From: Candidatus Poribacteria bacterium
GTDB lineage: Bacteria > Poribacteria > WGA-4E > WGA-3G
DNA length: 64,000 bases
Reading direction: 5' to 3'
Assembly: GCA_963665235.2 (NCBI GenBank)
Contig: CAXXLX010000002.1
Span: forward strand, 288,001-352,000
The translations under genes were made by a program, and so were the position numbers. Positions 29,618 to 52,856 of the stretch are shown in pieces. The notes under the pieces are model-generated. The model was not told the origin of the DNA, did not search any database, and saw only the letters and a program-made list of their open reading frames with translations. Numbering within the stretch: position 1 is the first letter of the stretch; every line of letters begins with the position of its first letter.

Positions 29618-30064
29618 TCATTTGAACGAGGCGTAATCTGAGACGGGGTCTATGTATTTACCGTTTGAATCATCTTTAGGGTAGTGTGCGGCTTGTGTTC
29701 CGTTGCACCGGAGCAACCGGTCAGCGGTGAGCAGGAAACCGCGCAGGAGCCCGTATTCTTGGATACACGCCATGCCGAAATGGGAACAACTTGGCGTGAA
29801 ATTACAGGACGGTTTGTCCTGGCTTGAGATGAATTTCTGATACAATCGTATTAAGCCTGTGGCTGCGAGTTTCAATTCGGAGGTTTCTTGCGGATTGAAG
29901 CGGATACGCTTCTGCGGTTTTGTAGGTGTAATTGGGTTGACGTGTCGGATGAAGGCAAGGTCAGCGGCTTCGCCTGCAAACGTGGATGGGACAGCAATAA
30001 TAGCGGATAAACAGAGTATATAGAGGCACATAAGTAGGGGATACATTGGTGAATGATTTAGCAT
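29618..30064 (-). CDS. YidD-like (haemolytic domain) protein with N-terminal extension
   Basis: IRLYQKFIS...CNFTPSCS...DRLLRCN. Confidence 0.75.
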   Translation of the reverse strand: MLNHSPMYPLLMCLYILCLSAIIAVPSTFAGEAADLAFIRHVNPITPTKPQKRIRFNPQETSELKLAATGLIRLYQKFISSQDKPSCNFTPSCSHFGMACIQEYGLLRGFLLTADRLLRCNGTQAAHYPKDDSNGKYIDPVSDYASFK

Positions 30065-30127
30065 GGGATTTCCTTGACCTCTACGGATTTGGGAGCGTTT
30101 TTTTGGGGGTACCCCCTTGTGGTCTCC

Positions 30128-31105
30128 TTACGGAAAGCATCCGGATGGGACATAATGTCGCGAGAAGAAGATTCCGAGGGTTACAGGCATCATGTCGTTG
30201 TTCGGGAGTGAGAAGAAGGGTCTATCCACTCGCAATTCGAGTTTGAGGCGACTTCTAGTCAAACGGAGCATCTCTACTCCACCGACAACATAAGCCCCTA
30301 GACCGCTGTCGTCCTCTGTATTAGACTCTTCGTAGTACTCCCACTCATCCCTAAACCAATGTTTTTGTTTTTTTTCAGTTATGGTTGTGTAACTACCTCC
30401 GAATATAGAGAATCCGCCTCCGATATAGGGCGTGATGTTCTTATTATTCAAAAAGTAGCGTCCCCCAATTGACCATGCGGCGAACATAAAGTTGTCGTCC
30501 CCGCTGTGTCGGAACTCTGTGCCTACAGCATACTTCGATGTCTCATAAGACCAACCGAATTCATAACCGGGTTCAGCAGTTACATCTGCTCCTGGTATAA
30601 AAGTTCCAAAGATTCCGACATTCCAAAGGGATTCACCTGCTATTTTTTTGGCTTCCGAGCCCTCATGTTCGGTAACGCTCTCGATGTCCACTGTATCTTC
30701 AATCGGTTTGTCATGAACGATTGCGTCAACCAATCTGGGGGCAACTTTAATCATTTCCTCTATGTTCGCTATCCAAAGTTGTCGTTCAACAACGGTGGTG
30801 CCGCGGGGTGTCTCTTTAGTAAGGTGTACGAGTACTTTTTCTCCCAGACGGCGGAAGGTTACGCGATAGAATTCGGCTGTTATCTGTGCCTCGTAAACGG
30901 GGTCGCTCACATCAATACCGAGTTTCCGGAATTCGGTAGCTATCAGTAGGACTGCGCTTTGTGCATCCACTTCATCTACACCGGGATGGTCGCCGATTAG
31001 TAGGGTAATGTGTTCGGCTGCGGTGTCTTGTTGGGCATGGGCTGATAGGAGCGCGAGGCCCGTTAGTAGCAATATGAAAACGTTTCGCATCAAGTTGATT
31101 TTCAT
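30128..31105 (-). CDS. secreted protein with C-terminal outer-membrane beta-barrel
   Basis: Signal peptide; ITPYIGGG, GLGAYVVGGVE strands; AAGGAG RBS. Confidence 0.7.
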   Translation of the reverse strand: MKINLMRNVFILLLTGLALLSAHAQQDTAAEHITLLIGDHPGVDEVDAQSAVLLIATEFRKLGIDVSDPVYEAQITAEFYRVTFRRLGEKVLVHLTKETPRGTTVVERQLWIANIEEMIKVAPRLVDAIVHDKPIEDTVDIESVTEHEGSEAKKIAGESLWNVGIFGTFIPGADVTAEPGYEFGWSYETSKYAVGTEFRHSGDDNFMFAAWSIGGRYFLNNKNITPYIGGGFSIFGGSYTTITEKKQKHWFRDEWEYYEESNTEDDSGLGAYVVGGVEMLRLTRSRLKLELRVDRPFFSLPNNDMMPVTLGIFFSRHYVPSGCFP

Positions 31106-31160
31106 TTTTTTCTCCTTCTAGAAAGAGGGTGACTAAGTTAAGATATAGGTGTGATATTTT

Positions 31161-31561
31161 GTCAAGGCACCCACCGCCTAAAGGCGGGGGAAACCTGTGC
31201 TTCGTAAACAACAGCACCTCCGAAGAAGTGTCTGACATCGTCTCCACAGGGAGATCCAAGCAGCCTCCTCAACATGAAAGTTGACTTTTATATACAATCC
31301 ATTTTGACAGTGCTTTTATCAGACCCACGCTTTTACCTATGGCAATCCAAGACACTCAAGTATCTCTGCAGCGTCCATCTGTTCTTTTCCGTGAAGTGCT
31401 GTCCCTTTACACAAGTCACACACGGGGGGAGCGAACAGGAACCTAACTCACAACCGGACACTACAAGAATATTATAACATCATGGATTGTATTTGTCAAG
31501 GAAAAAAGGAGCGGGCATTTCTCCCCGCGCTAAAGCGTCGGGGTCTCCTGCCCGAAGATTG
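31161..31561 (-). mobile_element. non-autonomous IS200/IS605 element with promoter and reRNA-like end, no protein
   Basis: End hairpins ccccgacgctttagcgcgggg and cccccgcctttaggcggtggg; follows TTTAC, ends TTGAC; TTGACA-17-TATAAT at 31471-31499. Confidence 0.75.
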
Positions 31562-31657
31562 GTAAAGTTTTTGTCAGTTGCGGTGCGGGGTTATTTAGTT
31601 CTCCATATTTTTCGCAGTTTTTTCAACAAACCTCATACTAGAAGAATATACACATAT

Positions 31658-31771
31658 CAAGACTTACGCAGAGCGTTGATAAACCCTTATGCTAATGGGA
31701 TTTAGAGGGAGCCCTAACGGGCGAGGCGACCTCGCCCCTACGATGCTCCTGCCAAATTTGCGTCTGTCCTG
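31658..31771. mobile_element. CAGGACTTACGCA-family MITE
   Basis: Degenerate TIRs with 7-bp CACATAT duplication. Confidence 0.8.
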
Positions 31772-31922
31772 CACATATATAAAGTGAATCTGTCCAACTA
31801 AATGAATTAGAAATAGTATAAGTAGACAGAGTCATTCAGTTTTCCATATTTCTGACGTGCAATAAATTGCGCGTCTACGAATGCACCCTGCTTGAAAAGA
31901 CGATAGCAGGCGGATACGGATG

Positions 31923-32642
31923 TCACTCGTTTGTAATGCCCCACATCCGCACCTTCTGCCACCACGACCCGCTCTGGAACAATTCACGCTCGTCGTAATC
32001 TACTTCACCATCAAACAGAAGGGTGACATGAACAGATAGGTCATGAGGCGTGTTGTTTGTGAGTTCAACAGCCAGCCTCGGATTGTGAGGGTCAAGGCGG
32101 AAGTCTCGACTAAAACTCTCGGTAAGCGCAAATTCGTGTTTCGTATTGTAGATAAACTCACCGTTGGCGGTCTCAGTAAAATCAGTGGAGACAAGAAGTT
32201 CCAACTTTTCAGGGGCTCCAGAGTCTCCAATCTTTTCTATTTTCCAGGAGTTGTCGTTGCGCCTCTGAGCAATCAGGGTAATAGGGGTGCCATTTATGGA
32301 AAAATTTTCAAAATTTACTCGGCCGTCGCCTCGAATAAACATATTCAGAATTCTAAGCGTCCCATCATCAAGGACAAACATCTCGATATCTGTTCCAGGA
32401 TAAAAGCAACTTTCCCCAGGCTGTAAGATATCCCCTGCTTTGCAGAAGGGGCCATCAGTAGGTTCAGTTGGGGTCGGAGGACTGGGTAAGGTAAATTCTA
32501 TCTTTACGGTCGCTATTTCAGGAACGGTCGTTTCTTCGCTATCTTCGCCACAACCTGCAACGAAAATAGATAGGGAAACTAAGACTGTCATTAGGAGAAT
32601 TGACAAAGTCATTTTTCCAGTCATAACGAACATTTTCATCAT
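31923..32642 (-). CDS. lipoprotein with CxxGDILQPGxSCxYPGT domain
   Basis: AAGGAG RBS, lipobox VAGC; domain shared with 37873-38301. Confidence 0.75.
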   Translation of the reverse strand: MMKMFVMTGKMTLSILLMTVLVSLSIFVAGCGEDSEETTVPEIATVKIEFTLPSPPTPTEPTDGPFCKAGDILQPGESCFYPGTDIEMFVLDDGTLRILNMFIRGDGRVNFENFSINGTPITLIAQRRNDNSWKIEKIGDSGAPEKLELLVSTDFTETANGEFIYNTKHEFALTESFSRDFRLDPHNPRLAVELTNNTPHDLSVHVTLLFDGEVDYDERELFQSGSWWQKVRMWGITNE

Positions 32643-32745
32643 AAACTCCTTTTGCATGATTTTCGATTGGATTGGGCAATCGTATTGTTGAATGGAAGGA
32701 TGGCAGACAACAATCCGCCATCCTTCCAACTTTCTCTGGTCCGTC

Positions 32746-35700
32746 CTACTTGCGTATCAACATCTTACGCGTGGCGGTGAAATCGCCTGCGGTGAGTGTG
32801 TAGAAATACACACCACTTGCAACAGGTTCACCGACTGCGTTTCTGCCATCCCAATAGGCGGCACGGGTGCGAGTCTGATAGGTGCCTGCACGTTGATGTC
32901 CTAAGTCTAACGCCCGGACAACACGCCCTTGGATGTCGTATATTGTCAATGATACATCCGCAGATTTGGACAACTGATAGGGTATCCATGTCTCCGGGTT
33001 GAACGGGTTCGGATAGTTGGCAAGCAGCGCGGTTTCTTCGGGGGCAACCAGTGCCAAGAACTGCTCAAGCACAGCGATCCCCGCTGATAGGTGTGAGAGG
33101 TGTTTCCCGATGCGCGCGCCTCAGTGAGCCACGCTTGGAGTTGGGCTGCGGTGAAATGGGAGTGCACCTGTGCGCGGGCAGCGGGCGCGGCTGCTGCCGC
33201 AGTATCTACCGCCGCTGCTACCAATATGAAATCGTCTACGTCGACGACTTCATCGCCGTTGACATCTGCGGTGTTGGTGCCGGTTTTCCCATACTGCAGT
33301 CCGACCTGTGCCAAATCTTGGACATCCACGACCCCATCACCGTTCACATCCTCTTTGCGGGTTACCGGTGCGGGGGTATCAGGCGGTGCACCAGCTGACG
33401 GAAGAACACCAAGAGCTATGCCGAATGGACCCCCTACTCAATCCTAATTGTGACGAGGTCTTCAATGTTTGATCCATCCAAGTTCGCACGTTGGATTTTA
33501 TCCGTGCCAAAATCTGTCCAATACATCTTGCCACCCTCAACATCTAACGCTATGCCTATGGACTACTCAATCCTTGTGTGACGAGGTCTTCAACGTTAGA
33601 GCCATCCAAGTTCGCACGCTGGATTTTATCCGTGCCATAATCTGTCCAATACATCTTGCCACCCACCACATCTAACGCTATGCCGTCTGGACTCCTCAAT
33701 CCTTGTGTGACGAGGTCTTCAATGTTTGAGCCGTCCAAGTTCGCACGTTGGATTTTATCCGTGTTAAAATCTGTCCAATCTGTCCAATACATCTTGCCAC
33801 CCACCACATCTAACGCTATGCCGTCTGGACCCCTCAATCCTTGTGTGACGAGGTCTTCAATGTTTGATCCATCCAAGTTCGCACGTTGGATTTTATCCGT
33901 GCCAGAATCTGTCCAATACATCTTGCCACCCTCTACATCTAACGCTATGCCGTCTGGACCCTCAATCCTTGTGTGACGAGGTCTTCGATGTTTGAGCCAT
34001 CCAAGTTCGCACGTTGGATTTTATCCGTGTACCAATCTGTCCAATACATCTTGCCACCCACCACATCTAACGCTATGCCGTCTGGCCCTCAATCCCTGTC
34101 GTGACGAGGTCTTCAATGTTTGAGCCATCCAAGTTCGCACGTTGGATTTTATCCGTGTCATAATCTGTCCAGAAAATCGTCAACAGGTCTTCGCCTCTAC
34201 TTGCAGTGACGAGGACTTCTGTGGTCAGCGCGGGGCCTTTATAGGTTGTGATCGCGCCATCTGCCACACTGAAGGTCAACGCACTATCCCTGACAAAGTC
34301 GGTGCCATCAAAATTCAGTTTGACCCTTATTTGTCTATCGCCGAGGCGTTTCACGGTAGCGGTGTCTACTGCTACCCCCTTGATGCCGGAGACTGTCACG
34401 GCGTTTCTGATTTTGGCAATATCCTTTTCGTAAGTCGCATCGGACAGGCTCAGCGTAACGACGCTGCCATTTAGCGTCGCCTCTGTCAATGGGGACACCA
34501 TCGAAGCGGAAACACTTTCCTTAACGGGGGTAACAGAGACTTCTGCGGTTAATGCCGCTCCCGTGTAGTTTGTGATTGCGCTTGCTGCCACGCTGAAGGT
34601 GAGTGTCGCAGTCTTGTCAAGGTTGGTACCGTCAAAATCGAGTGCAACTGTTATCCTTCTATTACTGAGGCGTTTCACTTTTGCAGTGTTTATTTTTACA
34701 CCAGTGATGCCCGATACCGTCACGGCGTTGCTAATTTTGGAGAGGTCTCGCTCATAAGTGGCACCCGTAAGGGTCAGTGTGACAGGGTCCGTATTTAGTG
34801 TCGCCTCTGTCAACCGAGATACAACCGAAAGGCTTTCCTTATGAGCAGTGACAGCTATTTCTGTAGTCAATGCCGCTCCTGTGTAGTTTGCTATAGCACC
34901 CGATGCAACGTTAAAGGTCAGTGTCGCATCCGTGTCAAAGTCGGTGCCGTCAAAACCGAGTTCAACGGTGACTTTTTTATCACTGAGACGTTGCACCTTA
35001 GCGGTATTTACCGTTACACCAGTAATACCCGATACCGCCACCGCATCCCTGATTTTGGAGAGGTCTTGCTCATAAGTGGCACCTGTCAGCGCCAGTGTGA
35101 CAGCACTCTCATTGAGTGTCGCCTCTGTTAATAGAGACACAACCGAAGCAGAGATATTTATCTCAACGCGTCCCTCAATAGCAGTGACAGGGATTTCTGT
35201 GGTGAAGGCATCTCCCGTGTAGCCTGCTATAGCCCCCGATGCAACATTAAAGGTCAGTGTGGTATCCGCATCGAAGTTCGTCCAATCAAAATCCAATTCA
35301 AAGGTTATTTCTGTGTCGCTGAGGCGTTGTACTGTTGCCGGATCTACCGTTACGCCAGGGATCCCGGATACCGTCACTGCATCTCTGATTGTAGAAACGT
35401 CCGCCTCGTAAATCGGACCTGTCAGTGTCAGTGTGACCACACTCTCATCCAAAGTCACTTCTGTCAACGGAGACACAACCGAAGCAGCAACGCCTTCTTT
35501 AATAGCAGTGACAGGGACTTCTGCGGTGAAGGCATCTCCCGTGTAGCCTGCTATAGCACCCGATCCCACGTTAAAAGTCAGTGTGGCATCCGCGTCAAAA
35601 TCAGTGCCATCAAAGGTAAGTGCAACCGTTATCTCTGTGTCGCTGAGACGTTGAATTTTAGAAGGATCTGCTGTCACACCATCAATCCCGGTTACTGTCA

Positions 35701-38301: not shown

Positions 38302-38529
38302 AAGTAGAACTCCTTTTTAGAAAAGTGTCAAGTGAGTGCTGAAGCTCTCGCTTGATCGAGAATACTTGAAAGTCTATTTTCGTATCAACATCTTGCGCGC
38401 AGCGGTGAGTGTATAAAAATAGACACCATCCGCTATAGGTTCATCGAACGCGCTTTTGCCATTTGCTCGGTTTTGAAGCCTCTTGGCTATGAAACCGAGG
38501 TTTCCCCAGCCTTTAGGCTGTGGGTGCTA

Positions 38530-39444
38530 TCACCTATTGCTTCTCATGATAAAGAGCATATCTTCCGCAAGCTCTGTGAGCACTTCTACTAAATCTCTAT
38601 TTAGACGGGGGCTCACTTGACAAGGTCCATCAATCTCTAAAAAATAACCTGTGAACTCAAAATCTCCCCTGATCGTTTCAAAGTCCTGTTCAGGAATATC
38701 GACTACAAAACGGAACCCGTTATTCCGTACTTCAATAGTCCCTGACCTGGGTTTACCTACTTCAAATTCTGATAATTTACCATCTGGAATTGACCGGAAA
38801 CCCTTAATAAAATCTCCTCCAGGAGGCTCCGTAATAAAATCTGCTCCAGCAAATTTAACGGAGGCCCGCTTGGATGTTAGAACCGGCCCACCTGCTACCA
38901 GGAGACTATCACCCGGTGAGGCAGCAACTGCAACGAGATCTCCATCTGATAACAAAACCAACCCACGATTACCTACCCCAAATACAATAGGTGTCCCTCT
39001 ATAATCTTCATCTAAAGGAGGGATCCGGCAGCCGACAGTGACCTGAAAAGTTATAGGCGTTGCCGTTGCGTTGGCCTGTCCGCTGTCGTCTGCGGCGGAA
39101 ACAGTAATTGTTGTCACGCCACCCCCCATACCTGTGATAGTCAAGGTAGTGCTATTCACTGCTACAGTAGCGATAGTCGTGTCATTAGAAGACGCGCGGA
39201 TGATATGTGTGTCCCAAAGATCGGCATCGGTTATGTTGACTACTACCCTTGCCTCGTCATCCACACCAAGCGTCTGATCGGATATCGCCGCAATCACCGG
39301 TTGATTATTTTTTTCAACAATCACCGGTTGGTTATTTTCCTCTTCTTCAATTTCCCCGCACCCAACAAGAACGAAGGATGCAAGCAGAAGGGTTAGGATC
39401 AACGCGAAGCACTTTCGAGCTATAGATAACCTTTTCATATTCAT
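38530..39444 (-). CDS. lipoprotein with Ig-like (cadherin/Big_2-like) domain
   Basis: Lipobox LVGC; NQPVIAAISDQTL...SSNDTTIATV. Confidence 0.75.
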   Translation of the reverse strand: MNMKRLSIARKCFALILTLLLASFVLVGCGEIEEEENNQPVIVEKNNQPVIAAISDQTLGVDDEARVVVNITDADLWDTHIIRASSNDTTIATVAVNSTTLTITGMGGGVTTITVSAADDSGQANATATPITFQVTVGCRIPPLDEDYRGTPIVFGVGNRGLVLLSDGDLVAVAASPGDSLLVAGGPVLTSKRASVKFAGADFITEPPGGDFIKGFRSIPDGKLSEFEVGKPRSGTIEVRNNGFRFVVDIPEQDFETIRGDFEFTGYFLEIDGPCQVSPRLNRDLVEVLTELAEDMLFIMRSNR

Positions 39445-50565: not shown

Positions 50566-51777
50566 TTAGACGAAAGCATTTGTGGAATTCAGAAGCCGAC
50601 TGGTGGCTTCAACGGCAATGCCTACAATTTTGTTGAACAAAACAATAGGTCTTACAATACCTAACCCAAAGGAGGCTACCCCCTCCTTAAGAATATTGAT
50701 AGCAGCGTTGTGGTCTCTGTCAAGATGCGTATGGCAACTTGGACAGGTCCATTCTCTCTCTGCTAATGTGATTGTTTCGTTTTTATGTCCGCAAACAGAA
50801 CAAGATTTTGTTGTGGGGGTCCAGCGGTCAATCTTCAGAACGCTTTTAATACGCTTACTGGATTGATGTTTTAGTTTCTGCATGAACTCGCCAAAAGCAA
50901 GGTCAGAAATCTGTTTACCCCAGAGTGCTTTCATGCCATTAAGGTTTAGGGCTTCAAAGAACAGAATATCCGACTGTCTACAAAGTTCTATCGCTAACTT
51001 CCAATGGTGGTCTGACCTTTGATGCGCAGTTCTTTTATGGATACGTGCAACTTGCTGCCGACTTCGGGCTTGATTATTAGAACCTGGAACCTTGCGTGAA
51101 AACGCCCTTTGTGCCTTGGCTAAGTCTTTCGCGTTCTGTTGGTAGAACATAGGAGAACTATATCGTTTTGCGTCACTGCCAGTCAGGAAGTCTTTGATAC
51201 CCATATCAAACCCTTCAGCTTTACCTGTCTTGGGTTCGGGTATGACTTCGCTATAGTCTTCAGTGAGTGTGATATATATGTCTCCGAGGGCATCACGAGT
51301 GACATGAACTTCTTTGATGGCACCTTGTATCTCGCGATGCAAAGCAAAACGATACCAGTGTCCGTTTAGGCGAATTTTATAGGTAGGATGATTTCTTTCT
51401 TGCTTTTGTGGGGCAAGCAACTTTTCTATTTTCACCTGTTCACCGCGAAACGTCATGCCTTTGTGTTTTTGACATTTCTTGAATTGCGGGTGTCCGCGTT
51501 TGTGCGTCCGCATCTCTCTAAACGATTGAGCAAGGCGTTTCACTACATTTTGTAACGCCCAGGAATACGGAATATTCCAATGGGCATACTTCTTCAGTTG
51601 CTTCAGTTTTGTCAGGTGTGCTGACATCTGTGAATACGACAAACCTTTACCATATCGACGGTAATATCGCATAGACAAGGCGATGAAGTGATTTCGCACA
51701 ACACCACAGATATTAAGCTCGTTATGTAGACGCTTTAAGGTCTTATCGTGAAAGAGTTTGTGTTTTGTATTTCGCAC
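50566..51777 (-). CDS. tnpB: RNA-guided endonuclease TnpB
   Basis: RuvC D (GFDMG), E (FFEAL), D (DRDHNAA); Zn finger CSVC...CPSC. Confidence 0.95.
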   Translation of the reverse strand: MRNTKHKLFHDKTLKRLHNELNICGVVRNHFIALSMRYYRRYGKGLSYSQMSAHLTKLKQLKKYAHWNIPYSWALQNVVKRLAQSFREMRTHKRGHPQFKKCQKHKGMTFRGEQVKIEKLLAPQKQERNHPTYKIRLNGHWYRFALHREIQGAIKEVHVTRDALGDIYITLTEDYSEVIPEPKTGKAEGFDMGIKDFLTGSDAKRYSSPMFYQQNAKDLAKAQRAFSRKVPGSNNQARSRQQVARIHKRTAHQRSDHHWKLAIELCRQSDILFFEALNLNGMKALWGKQISDLAFGEFMQKLKHQSSKRIKSVLKIDRWTPTTKSCSVCGHKNETITLAEREWTCPSCHTHLDRDHNAAINILKEGVASFGLGIVRPIVLFNKIVGIAVEATSRLLNSTNAFV

Positions 51778-52190
51778 TATACACCTTTTTCATCTTCTAC
51801 ATACTGCTGTAAAACATCTAGGGTTACACCGCCTGTAGAGGCTACAAAATAGGAACGTGTCCACAAGTTCGGAAGTCTTGATTTTAAGTGTGGGAACTCC
51901 TCGCGTAACACTTTTGCCGTCATTCCTTTTATCCTGCCGATCAGGATACCAACAGCTTCGGTGGGAGGAATGCTAATCAACAAATGCACGGGGTCTGCAA
52001 GGGTTTCCACTGCACGGACAACGTAACCGTATTTATCTTGAGATTCTAATACAAGTTCTTTAAACCGAGTTTGGATTTCAGTAGACAAAACCGGGCGTCT
52101 GTATTTTGTACACCAAATGATATGATACTCACAGGCGTATGTAGAGGACCGTGTCTTTTGATATACTAACTCCGGCGTTTCTAATTTCAT
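51777..52190 (-). CDS. tnpA: Y1 transposase TnpA (HUH motif mutated)
   Basis: YHIIWCTKYRR, DPVHLL, LWTRSYF, QYVED. Confidence 0.93.
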   Translation of the reverse strand: MKLETPELVYQKTRSSTYACEYHIIWCTKYRRPVLSTEIQTRFKELVLESQDKYGYVVRAVETLADPVHLLISIPPTEAVGILIGRIKGMTAKVLREEFPHLKSRLPNLWTRSYFVASTGGVTLDVLQQYVEDEKGV

Positions 52191-52614: not shown

Positions 52615-52688
52615 TGGGCGGTACAGGACTTGAACCTGTGACCTCTTGCATGTCAAGCAAACGCTCTAGCCACCTGAGCTAACCACCC
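52615..52688 (-). tRNA. tRNA-Val(GAC)
   Basis: GGGTGGTTAGCTCAG...TTGACAT...GGTTCAAGTCC; CCA not encoded. Confidence 0.95.
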
Positions 52689-52702
52689 ACATATAGAGGT
52701 AA

Positions 52703-52777
52703 TGGAGGTGGCGGTCGGAATCGAACCGACGAATAAGAGTTTTGCAGACTCTGGCCTTACCACTTGGCTACGCCACC
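52703..52777 (-). tRNA. tRNA-Cys(GCA)
   Basis: GGTGGCGTAGCCAAGTGG...CTGCAAA...GTTCGATTCC...CCA. Confidence 0.95.
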
Positions 52778-52781
52778 GGAA

Positions 52782-52856
52782 TGGAGCGGGAGACGAGATT
52801 TGAACTCGCGACCTCCACCTTGGCAAGGTGGAGCTCTACCACTGAGCTACTCCCGC
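52782..52856 (-). tRNA. tRNA-Gly(GCC)
   Basis: GCGGGAGTAGCTCAG...TTGCCAA...GTTCAAATC...CCA. Confidence 0.95.

Follow-up and report, generated by a model that had tools for sequence, protein, structure and literature searches.

The 401 bp from 31161 to 31561 of the window (the whole 64,000-nucleotide stretch of Poribacteria DNA analysed here), read on the minus strand, are a single-copy, ORF-less, protein-free and non-autonomous IS200/IS605 derivative of the PATE type, located on contig C2 of a 5.3-Mb assembly in four contigs. Its best explanation, which we hold to be probable, is that of a PATE-type element with a promoter of its own, from which an RNA of ~300 nt ending in a TnpB omegaRNA scaffold would be made, with TnpA and TnpB coming from elsewhere, and that the copy described here has been orphaned. 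The kind is already known, and PATEs supplying omegaRNAs to TnpB made elsewhere are in print (Meers et al. 2023). What is added here is a family that extends across ~30 Poribacteria species, with full covariation support and with a conserved leader found only in tnpB-less elements. The anatomy of the element, its homology, the conservation of its RNA structure and its distribution were all observed directly.

Boundaries, ends and promoter of the element

On the minus strand the element runs from a composite left-end (LE) hairpin, located at 31512-31554, through a promoter and ~300 nt of non-coding sequence to a right-end (RE) hairpin. Its parts and the downstream genes are the following.

31562-31566, minus strand: TTTAC (plus-strand GTAAA), the 5' flank of the LE, read directly, at the place of the TTCAY target/TAM pentamer in relatives
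31502-31561, minus strand: LE, an imperfect inner hairpin (TTTA loop) enclosed by the outer stem CGGGCA/TGCCCG
31471-31499, minus strand: sigma-70 promoter TTGACA-17-TATAAT with a TG extension (extended -10), a 12/12 match
31378-31464, minus strand: module A, a leader of 87 nt at the predicted transcript start, conserved among copies
31358-31377, minus strand: linker, variable in length and sequence among homologues
31308-31357, minus strand: module B, a long hairpin of 50 nt with an internal loop (helices 5 and 6)
31269-31284, minus strand: helix 7, a small hairpin immediately 5' of the omegaRNA scaffold, supported by covariation
31161-31268, minus strand: TnpB-type omegaRNA/reRNA scaffold of 108 nt including the RE, assigned by homology to the 3' ends of tnpB elements and by covariation
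31249-31268, minus strand: scaffold stem 1
31245-31248 with 31196-31199, minus strand: scaffold stem 2
31207-31242, minus strand: scaffold stems 3a/3b
31170-31190, minus strand: scaffold stem 4, which is the RE hairpin
31256-31258 with 31165-31167, minus strand: scaffold pseudoknot
31145-31160, minus strand: candidate guide, the 16 nt past the RE, assigned by analogy only
30128-31105, minus strand: ORF of 325 aa, co-directional, starting 55 nt downstream of the RE, with the ribosome-binding site AGAAGGAGA
29618-30064, minus strand: ORF with a YidD domain (Pfam PF01809, E 5.8e-20), downstream of the 325-aa ORF

The boundaries could be fixed because the homology with a second element of the genome (C1:2945737-2948437) begins and stops exactly at 31561 and 31161, and the same exact endpoints were found in 10 full-length homologues from sister genomes. 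Both ends have subterminal imperfect hairpins with TTTA loops and no terminal inverted repeats, and they are kept in the homologues. At 31161 the element closes with ...GCCTTGAC, an RE ending in TTGAC, and between the flanks, TTTAC and AAAAT, there is no target-site duplication. The LE agrees in 59 of 60 bases with that at C1:2948378-2948437, and at least 10 IsrB-type elements have an LE ~81% identical to it; it is also conserved in sister genomes. The RE type is common to tnpB elements of the genome. One full copy of the element is present in this genome.

No conserved ORF was detected across 17 homologues, in which the longest ORFs (27-57 aa) differ in position, strand and start codon. A blastx search of the element against all 19,562 genome ORFs of at least 60 aa returned no TnpA or TnpB match, and nothing in the mini-element resembles tnpB coding sequence upstream of the ~110 nt that it shares with tnpB elements. 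Over the whole window, Rfam at gathering score gave 3 tRNAs only; at E ≤ 1 on 6 loci it gave two chance miRNA matches, both in another locus, and nothing relevant. The first-pass annotation had described both end hairpins, the TTTAC, the TTGAC end, the promoter and ~300 nt free of any credible ORF, and all of them were found where it had placed them, on the minus strand; its reading of a protein-free IS200/IS605 mini-element with its own promoter agrees with the boundaries, the ends, the absence of a conserved ORF and the blastx result. The TTTAC is there, yet it is one base off the TTCAT/TTCAC of the relatives. The interior is not decayed tnpB coding sequence; blastx for decayed tnpA or tnpB in it found nothing, and it is conserved and structured.

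The promoter is the sole 12/12 site among 8 promoter-like sites in 30000-33000, a region where shuffled sequences would give 4.1 ± 2.1 sites. At least 9 of its 12 positions are retained at the same place in 28 of 37 module-A copies, and module A always follows the -10 box at a distance of 6-7 nt. The same annotation had noticed that the promoter points into downstream genes, as is indeed the case for the 325-aa ORF, 55 nt past the RE, and then for the YidD-domain ORF. The 325-aa protein belongs to no Pfam family; its orthologues in other genera are 54-65% identical, too distant, with unrelated upstream regions, for the empty site to be reconstructed through them. Between the promoter and this gene, only the stem-3b hairpin resembles a terminator, and its T tract is weak; since nothing else intervenes, read-through into the 325-aa gene is likely, as is a promoter that reads into both this gene and yidD.

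The omegaRNA scaffold and its leader

By comparison of sequences, the last ~110 nt of the element are a TnpB-type reRNA/omegaRNA scaffold with the ISDra2 layout, that is, stems 1-4 and a pseudoknot. We assign this identity because the segment is homologous to the 3' ends of tnpB elements and because its covariation fits the ISDra2 architecture; the resemblance to a TnpB reRNA that had been remarked for the last ~100 nt was confirmed on both grounds. In the same genome, tnpB elements (C1:1303437, C2:528790 and others) have right ends that can be aligned with the last ~100-130 nt of the element, and the ORFs of the elements aligned to the RE module are TnpB according to Pfam. In the tnpB elements sharing the RE, a frame of 388 codons (383 aa from the first start codon) stops ~55 nt before the RE end. 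The tnpB element at C1:1959398-1960820 of the sister genome G036, which encodes 385 aa, aligns better still, and its ORF ends inside the module.

Covariation was tested on 69 pairs in 12 helices, using 17 homologues of the window type (alignment A2), the pairs being those given by RNAalifold plus manual pairs for module A. Paired cells amounted to 97.2%, against 36.5-49.5% when the 3' partners were slid by 1-3 columns. Changes on both sides were seen in 25 of the 69 pairs, whereas sliding left 3-8 such pairs and shuffling 14.2 ± 1.7, with none of the shuffles (0/500) reaching 25; cell counts overstate the number of independent events, because the compared sequences are related. Helices 8-12, the part common to tnpB elements, covary, and for the RE hairpin covariation is also expected because TnpA recognises that hairpin as DNA. 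In the pseudoknot, the loop is UGG with CCU in the RE in 10 sequences and UAG with CUA in 7, and the middle pair (stem-1 loop with -7..-5) is GC in 10 and AU in 7, with none broken. Those tnpB elements whose sequences were inspected follow the same pseudoknot rule, as judged by eye. The fold of the single sequence could not be distinguished from shuffles (z = -1.24; 12/100 shuffles fold at least as well).

In the text of Karvelis et al. 2021 (PMC8612924) and Nakagawa et al. 2023 (PMC10097598), the ISDra2 omegaRNA is located at the 3' end, overlaps the RE and reads 16 nt into the flank, as would be the case here, with a scaffold of 116 nt compared with ~108 nt in the window element. According to the same text, ISDra2 has stems 1, 2, 3a/3b and 4, the last with a UUUA loop, as well as a pseudoknot between the loop of stem 1 and the bases immediately preceding the guide, and all of these are found here. 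Both in the family and in ISDra2 as described there, stem 1 lies directly 5' of stem 2 and stems 3a/3b lie between the strands of stem 2. The latter pairs -85..-82 with -36..-33 in the family and -84..-81 with -35..-32 in ISDra2, while the UUUA loop of stem 4 is at -22..-19 and -20..-17, respectively; the family offsets were counted by hand on the consensus scaffold, and the likeness is one of position and topology, not of superposition. In the window copy, stem 4 is preceded by three additional bases, so that stem 2 is displaced to -88..-85 with -39..-36. Unlike ISDra2, the window element has no detectable sequence similarity to that omegaRNA and no adjacent tnpB, and the flank motif is TTCAY in the module-A family versus the TTGAT given for ISDra2.

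The sole exact genomic copy of the 16-nt candidate guide is this site itself. Genome-wide, no second target with a 12-nt seed (≤1 mismatch) was found beside TTCAY or TTTAC, and 16-mers with ≤4 mismatches gave no second target among the matches listed. A guide acting in trans is not supported by these searches. Of the trans-acting reRNA that had been put forward, only the need for a TnpB made elsewhere stands; no TnpB of the genome is a close cognate, the nearest reaching 55% identity and the copy of cognate type being internally deleted.

Upstream of the scaffold, the first-pass annotation had counted ~200 nt of unexplained RNA cargo. The extra RNA is present, but it is a conserved structured leader common to the relatives and not unexplained filler. 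The check by RNA covariation that had been suggested for this internal segment gave covariation in module B and in helix 7, and no Rfam family. Two-sided changes are seen in 7 of the 14 pairs of module B, where 95-99% of cells keep the pairing, and in 4 of the 5 pairs of helix 7, where the figure is 100%. Module B also recurs, with 49/54 bases, at C1:2948203-2948256. Conservation is highest in module A, whose mean column identity is 83% over 34 copies, too high for its fold to be defined. It was possible to see a long-range pair between columns 16 and 53 (GC 16, AU 15, GU 3, none broken), and a second helix with one compensatory change, which crosses the first and would form a pseudoknot. The long-range helix was preferred to a nested RNAalifold model of module A, in which 0 pairs show two-sided changes. 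We also discarded a long-range pairing between module A and the GAAGCACA of the scaffold, because both of its sides are invariant and a second fold pairs GAAGCACA with UGUG as stem 2.

A distinct structured leader, here called 'P', was found in the same genome as the 5' UTR of intact tnpB genes (the C1:331 element and, in the sister genome, the G036 element), and it persists in the decayed tnpB at C1:985005-985524 and in a second family of protein-free minis of 396 bp. By this analogy, modules A and B would most simply be the leader of a tnpB element whose coding copies lie outside the 112 genomes searched. Considering that leader 'P' is a tnpB 5' UTR that also survives in minis, a lost tnpB-bearing parent is the simpler reading, and no tnpB-bearing parent with a module-A leader was found in the 112 genomes of the family.

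Relatives, mobility and the supply of TnpA and TnpB

Full-length homologues of the 401-bp element, 69-77% identical, are present in sister genomes of genus g6. Module A was detected in 33 of the 112 genomes of the host's family, with 1-3 copies in each, among them 29 of 65 g6 genomes and 3 of 40 from genus g3. Its exact pattern gave 30 matches in GTDB species genomes, all in MAGs (29 Poribacteria and 1 'uncultured bacterium'), and 0 matches in the metagenome scans and the viral scan. Complete elements, with 271-324 nt from the start of module A (the predicted transcript start) to the RE end, make up 34 of the 39 distinct module-A copies; of the remaining 5, three are truncated, one runs off the contig end and one is divergent. 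A complete, tnpB-less length was likewise seen in 27 of the 30 GTDB matches, the other 3 being two cut by contig ends and one outside the RE pattern used. There is room for tnpB in 0/39 module-A copies and in 0/30 GTDB pattern matches. Module A is joined to two or three 3' scaffold types that cannot be aligned to each other.

The flanks differ among copies across ~30 genomes/species, which places the copies at different sites, and two pairs of copies with a common flank are therefore orthologous insertions. With copies at different sites in ~30 genomes, the family appears to be mobile. The LE flank is TTCAT in 12 module-A copies, TTCAC in 5 and TCCAC in 1, of the 18 located; the flank pattern found its motif in only these 18 of 32 copies. 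Most module-A copies in relatives are oriented opposite to the neighbouring gene. In 9 of the 12 elements flanked by TTCAT (e.g., L103, L109, L111, L059, L123, L125, L124, L061, and L090) the flank is the reverse complement of the ATG of an opposite-strand frame of at least 114 codons, and the RE flank of module-A elements often has a reversed Shine-Dalgarno sequence. Taking into account that TTCAT is a reversed ATG and that the Shine-Dalgarno sequence is also reversed, these elements sit between ribosome-binding site and start codon.

The window copy is the most diverged member, since it departs at 25 of 173 near-invariant columns compared with 0-13 for other copies. It has ~4 truly broken pairs, an enlarged helix-7 loop and a 10-nt insertion before helix 7 that is absent from the other 16 homologues. 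This divergence may partly be plain distance, the genome being the only member of its genus in the set. Among the sequencing runs listed as containing the locus there was no RNA run. Of four runs examined, three, which belong to two studies, have contigs with the element in place, and in none of the four was an empty-site joint across 31160/31562 found; the contigs of a more distant run (X6) end near 31110-31117. We think that the window copy is orphaned because it is single and the most diverged, it lies at the off-consensus TTTAC and the cognate-type tnpB is internally deleted.

The genome has 44 matches to the TnpB zinc-ribbon domain (PF07282), among them intact TnpBs more distant from the cognate type, and 13 to the Y1 transposase (Y1_Tnp). 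No close tnpB cognate to the window scaffold type was found in it: the closest TnpB is 55% identical to the cognate type (best E 1.3e-133), two others are 48-49% identical, and the copy of cognate type at C1:985005-985524 is the internally deleted one. A search by nhmmer with the window LE showed no tnpA-bearing element of this LE type in the genome. As for the genome-wide search for copies and for a parent tnpB element that had been suggested, it returned the single full copy and an RE shared with tnpB elements, but no tnpB-bearing parent with the module A/B leader. A TnpB at best E ≤ 1e-180 to the cognate type is present in 31 of 33 genomes with module A versus 35 of 79 other genomes, and within g6 in 28 of 29 with module A versus 22 of 36 without it; these are hand counts, in which kin are not independent and co-occurrence is confounded by kinship. 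The two module-A genomes without such a TnpB are the present one and one whose only module-A copy is truncated.

Other elements of the type were seen in the genome. The one at C1:2945737-2948437, minus strand (locus L014 1238-3938), is a unit of 2701 bp with LE, module B and RE module as in the window element, the shared pieces being the LE (59/60), an internal piece of 54 nt (49/54) and the last 131 nt (87%). Its interior has three opposite-strand ORFs of 140, 118, and 355 aa, the last with PD40/WD40-like repeats. It is present in single copy with TCCAT as LE flank, and it would be two partial elements or, alternatively, a set of passenger genes enclosed by IS200/IS605 ends. The second family of protein-free minis, of ~396 bp (C1:494615-495010, C1:1263167-1263558, C1:851216-851603, and partially C1:102416-102775), has TTGACT-17-TATAAT and the pseudoknot-like leader 'P', and its RE is that of the 388-aa TnpB elements. 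At least 10 copies were found of elements of ~1.4 kb (e.g., C1:1841969-1843400, L167) whose LE is 81% like that of the window element and which encode, on the opposite strand, a 371-aa protein with an RRXRR domain and without HNH (IsrB-like), frameshifted in several copies. An ultra-mini element of ~100 bp lies at C1:1424358-1424428, minus strand, with the LE almost directly joined to the last ~20 nt of the RE.

Proposed mechanism, rival readings and known systems

In the mechanism that we propose, transcription, TnpB loading, homing and read-through are predicted steps. The sigma-70 promoter near the left end would drive a non-coding RNA of ~300 nt, in which the module A leader would be followed by module B, the small hairpin and the 108-nt omegaRNA scaffold. 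This RNA would continue past the RE, and the first 16 nt of flank would be its guide. Following the published model, a Y1 TnpA made elsewhere would excise elements of the family and insert them at TTCAY, a TnpB made elsewhere would load the omegaRNA of the element and cut the emptied donor site, and recombination would then restore the element at the cut site.

A different role for the window copy, as a mobile promoter or an exapted regulatory insert whose outward consensus promoter drives the 325-aa gene and yidD while the RNA modules are passengers, is a real possibility, if not the one that we prefer. The promoter is still 12/12 with its TG although this copy is otherwise the most diverged; the 325-aa gene is co-directional and starts 55 nt past the RE with a strong ribosome-binding site, behind only the terminator-like stem 3b and its weak T tract; and contigs of three runs, in two studies, still have the copy in its place. 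However, the copies of the relatives are mostly reversed relative to the neighbouring gene, and since most of them face the other way, promoter delivery is not the general role of the family. This reading is also compatible with the PATE-type explanation, and it perhaps describes just the present effect of this copy: most likely, its still-perfect promoter now acts mainly by reading into the 325-aa and yidD genes. The window element itself is probably ordinary, an orphan whose main present effect is that of a strong promoter before these two genes.

What the leader does admits other answers. We regard as unlikely that modules A and B, instead of being leftovers of a lost tnpB leader, form a dedicated domain of RNA that is confined to Poribacteria and joined to at least two TnpB guide scaffolds; such a domain would give RNA-only selfish elements their own expression, processing or stability, or would sense a signal that gates guide production, and the elements would parasitise both TnpA and TnpB. 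Decidedly unlikely, in our judgement, is that these modules are a functional RNA in their own right (a sensor, a processing/stability element or a regulator) for which the IS ends and the omegaRNA are the vehicle. Module A, the most conserved part, always starts at the predicted transcript start, it occurs only in elements without room for tnpB (0/39 copies and 0/30 pattern matches) and it is combined with different 3' scaffolds, and module B covaries strongly. On the other hand, leader 'P' is a tnpB 5' UTR that survives in minis as well, so that a lost tnpB-bearing parent is simpler; the fold of module A has two covarying pairs only; and in the text of PMC10097598 the RNA 5' of the 116-nt ISDra2 scaffold is processed off and dispensable.

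Less probable still is a functionless relic, that is, a decaying deletion derivative whose conservation would reflect recent spread and not selection on the RNA. It agrees with the single and most diverged window copy and with the absence of a cognate TnpB in the genome, and related sequences can beat shuffles without any structure; but the slid controls keep the relatedness and show only 3-8 pairs with two-sided changes against the 25 of 69 that survive them, copies with the promoter retained are at different sites in ~30 species, and module A is 83% identical though joined to two or three non-alignable scaffold types. An IscB/IsrB-type omegaRNA made from the plus strand of the window, serving the IsrB-like genes with this LE type, is exceedingly improbable. 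At least 10 elements of the genome with an 81% identical LE do encode the 371-aa RRXRR protein opposite to the LE orientation, but what the RE module matches, on the same strand, are the 3' ends of tnpB elements and not the RE side of the IsrB elements, the consensus promoter faces the TnpB direction, and there was no match to HEARO or any other Rfam family. The plus-strand reading was rejected on this homology, the promoter direction and the lack of a HEARO match.

The PATE-type explanation, which we retain, has its closest precedent in the gene-less PATE-like elements of Geobacillus stearothermophilus (Meers et al. 2023, PMC10055086), which, in the words of that text, "often encode omegaRNAs" that are used in trans by the TnpB of other IS elements. 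Like these, the window element is protein-free, has both IS200/IS605 ends and keeps its omegaRNA, and it would need TnpA and TnpB in trans. It differs from the PATEs as described in the text of PMC10055086 in that its scaffold is preceded by a consensus promoter and by ~190 nt of structured, conserved leader (modules A and B with the small hairpin). A PATE with IStron ends is also shown in a figure of the IStron paper.

The family is among the better comparative cases of guide-RNA-only IS200/IS605 minis that would be maintained as RNA genes and not as mere debris, with the promoter retained, an omegaRNA fold that covaries including its pseudoknot, and a matching TnpB clade that tends to co-occur. 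Its conserved leader is absent from Rfam and travels only with tnpB-less elements in one phylum. If the leader controls the production or stability of the guide, it would bear on how TnpB guide RNA is made without an mRNA context, which would be of practical interest for compact genome editors. Haloarchaeal PATEs have reportedly been described in a paper on Haloquadratum walsbyi. The window element resembles them in being gene-less, of IS200/IS605 type and with end hairpins, a comparison made by the definition of the term only, and it differs in that its host is a bacterium of the Poribacteria. Altae-Tran and colleagues are said to have described in 2021 the stand-alone omegaRNAs of OMEGA systems, mainly for IscB-type RNAs. 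The window element is likewise a guide-RNA gene without an adjacent nuclease gene, but it has a TnpB-type scaffold within intact transposon ends.

Three further observations concern the window. A solo RE-like end of the ...GCTATCAC type is located at 38480-38533, plus strand, with no LE or tnpB within the 600 nt inspected. Directly upstream of the element, at 31656-31772, there is a dispersed repeat of ~115 bp with a G+C-rich hairpin, which has 107 BLAST matches in the genome and a very high summed depth in the contig runs. Finally, ~50566-52142 (minus strand) together with 52615-52856 form an IS200/IS605 element with tnpA and tnpB (Y1_Tnp E 8.4e-34; TnpB of 403 aa), which is located beside three tRNA genes.
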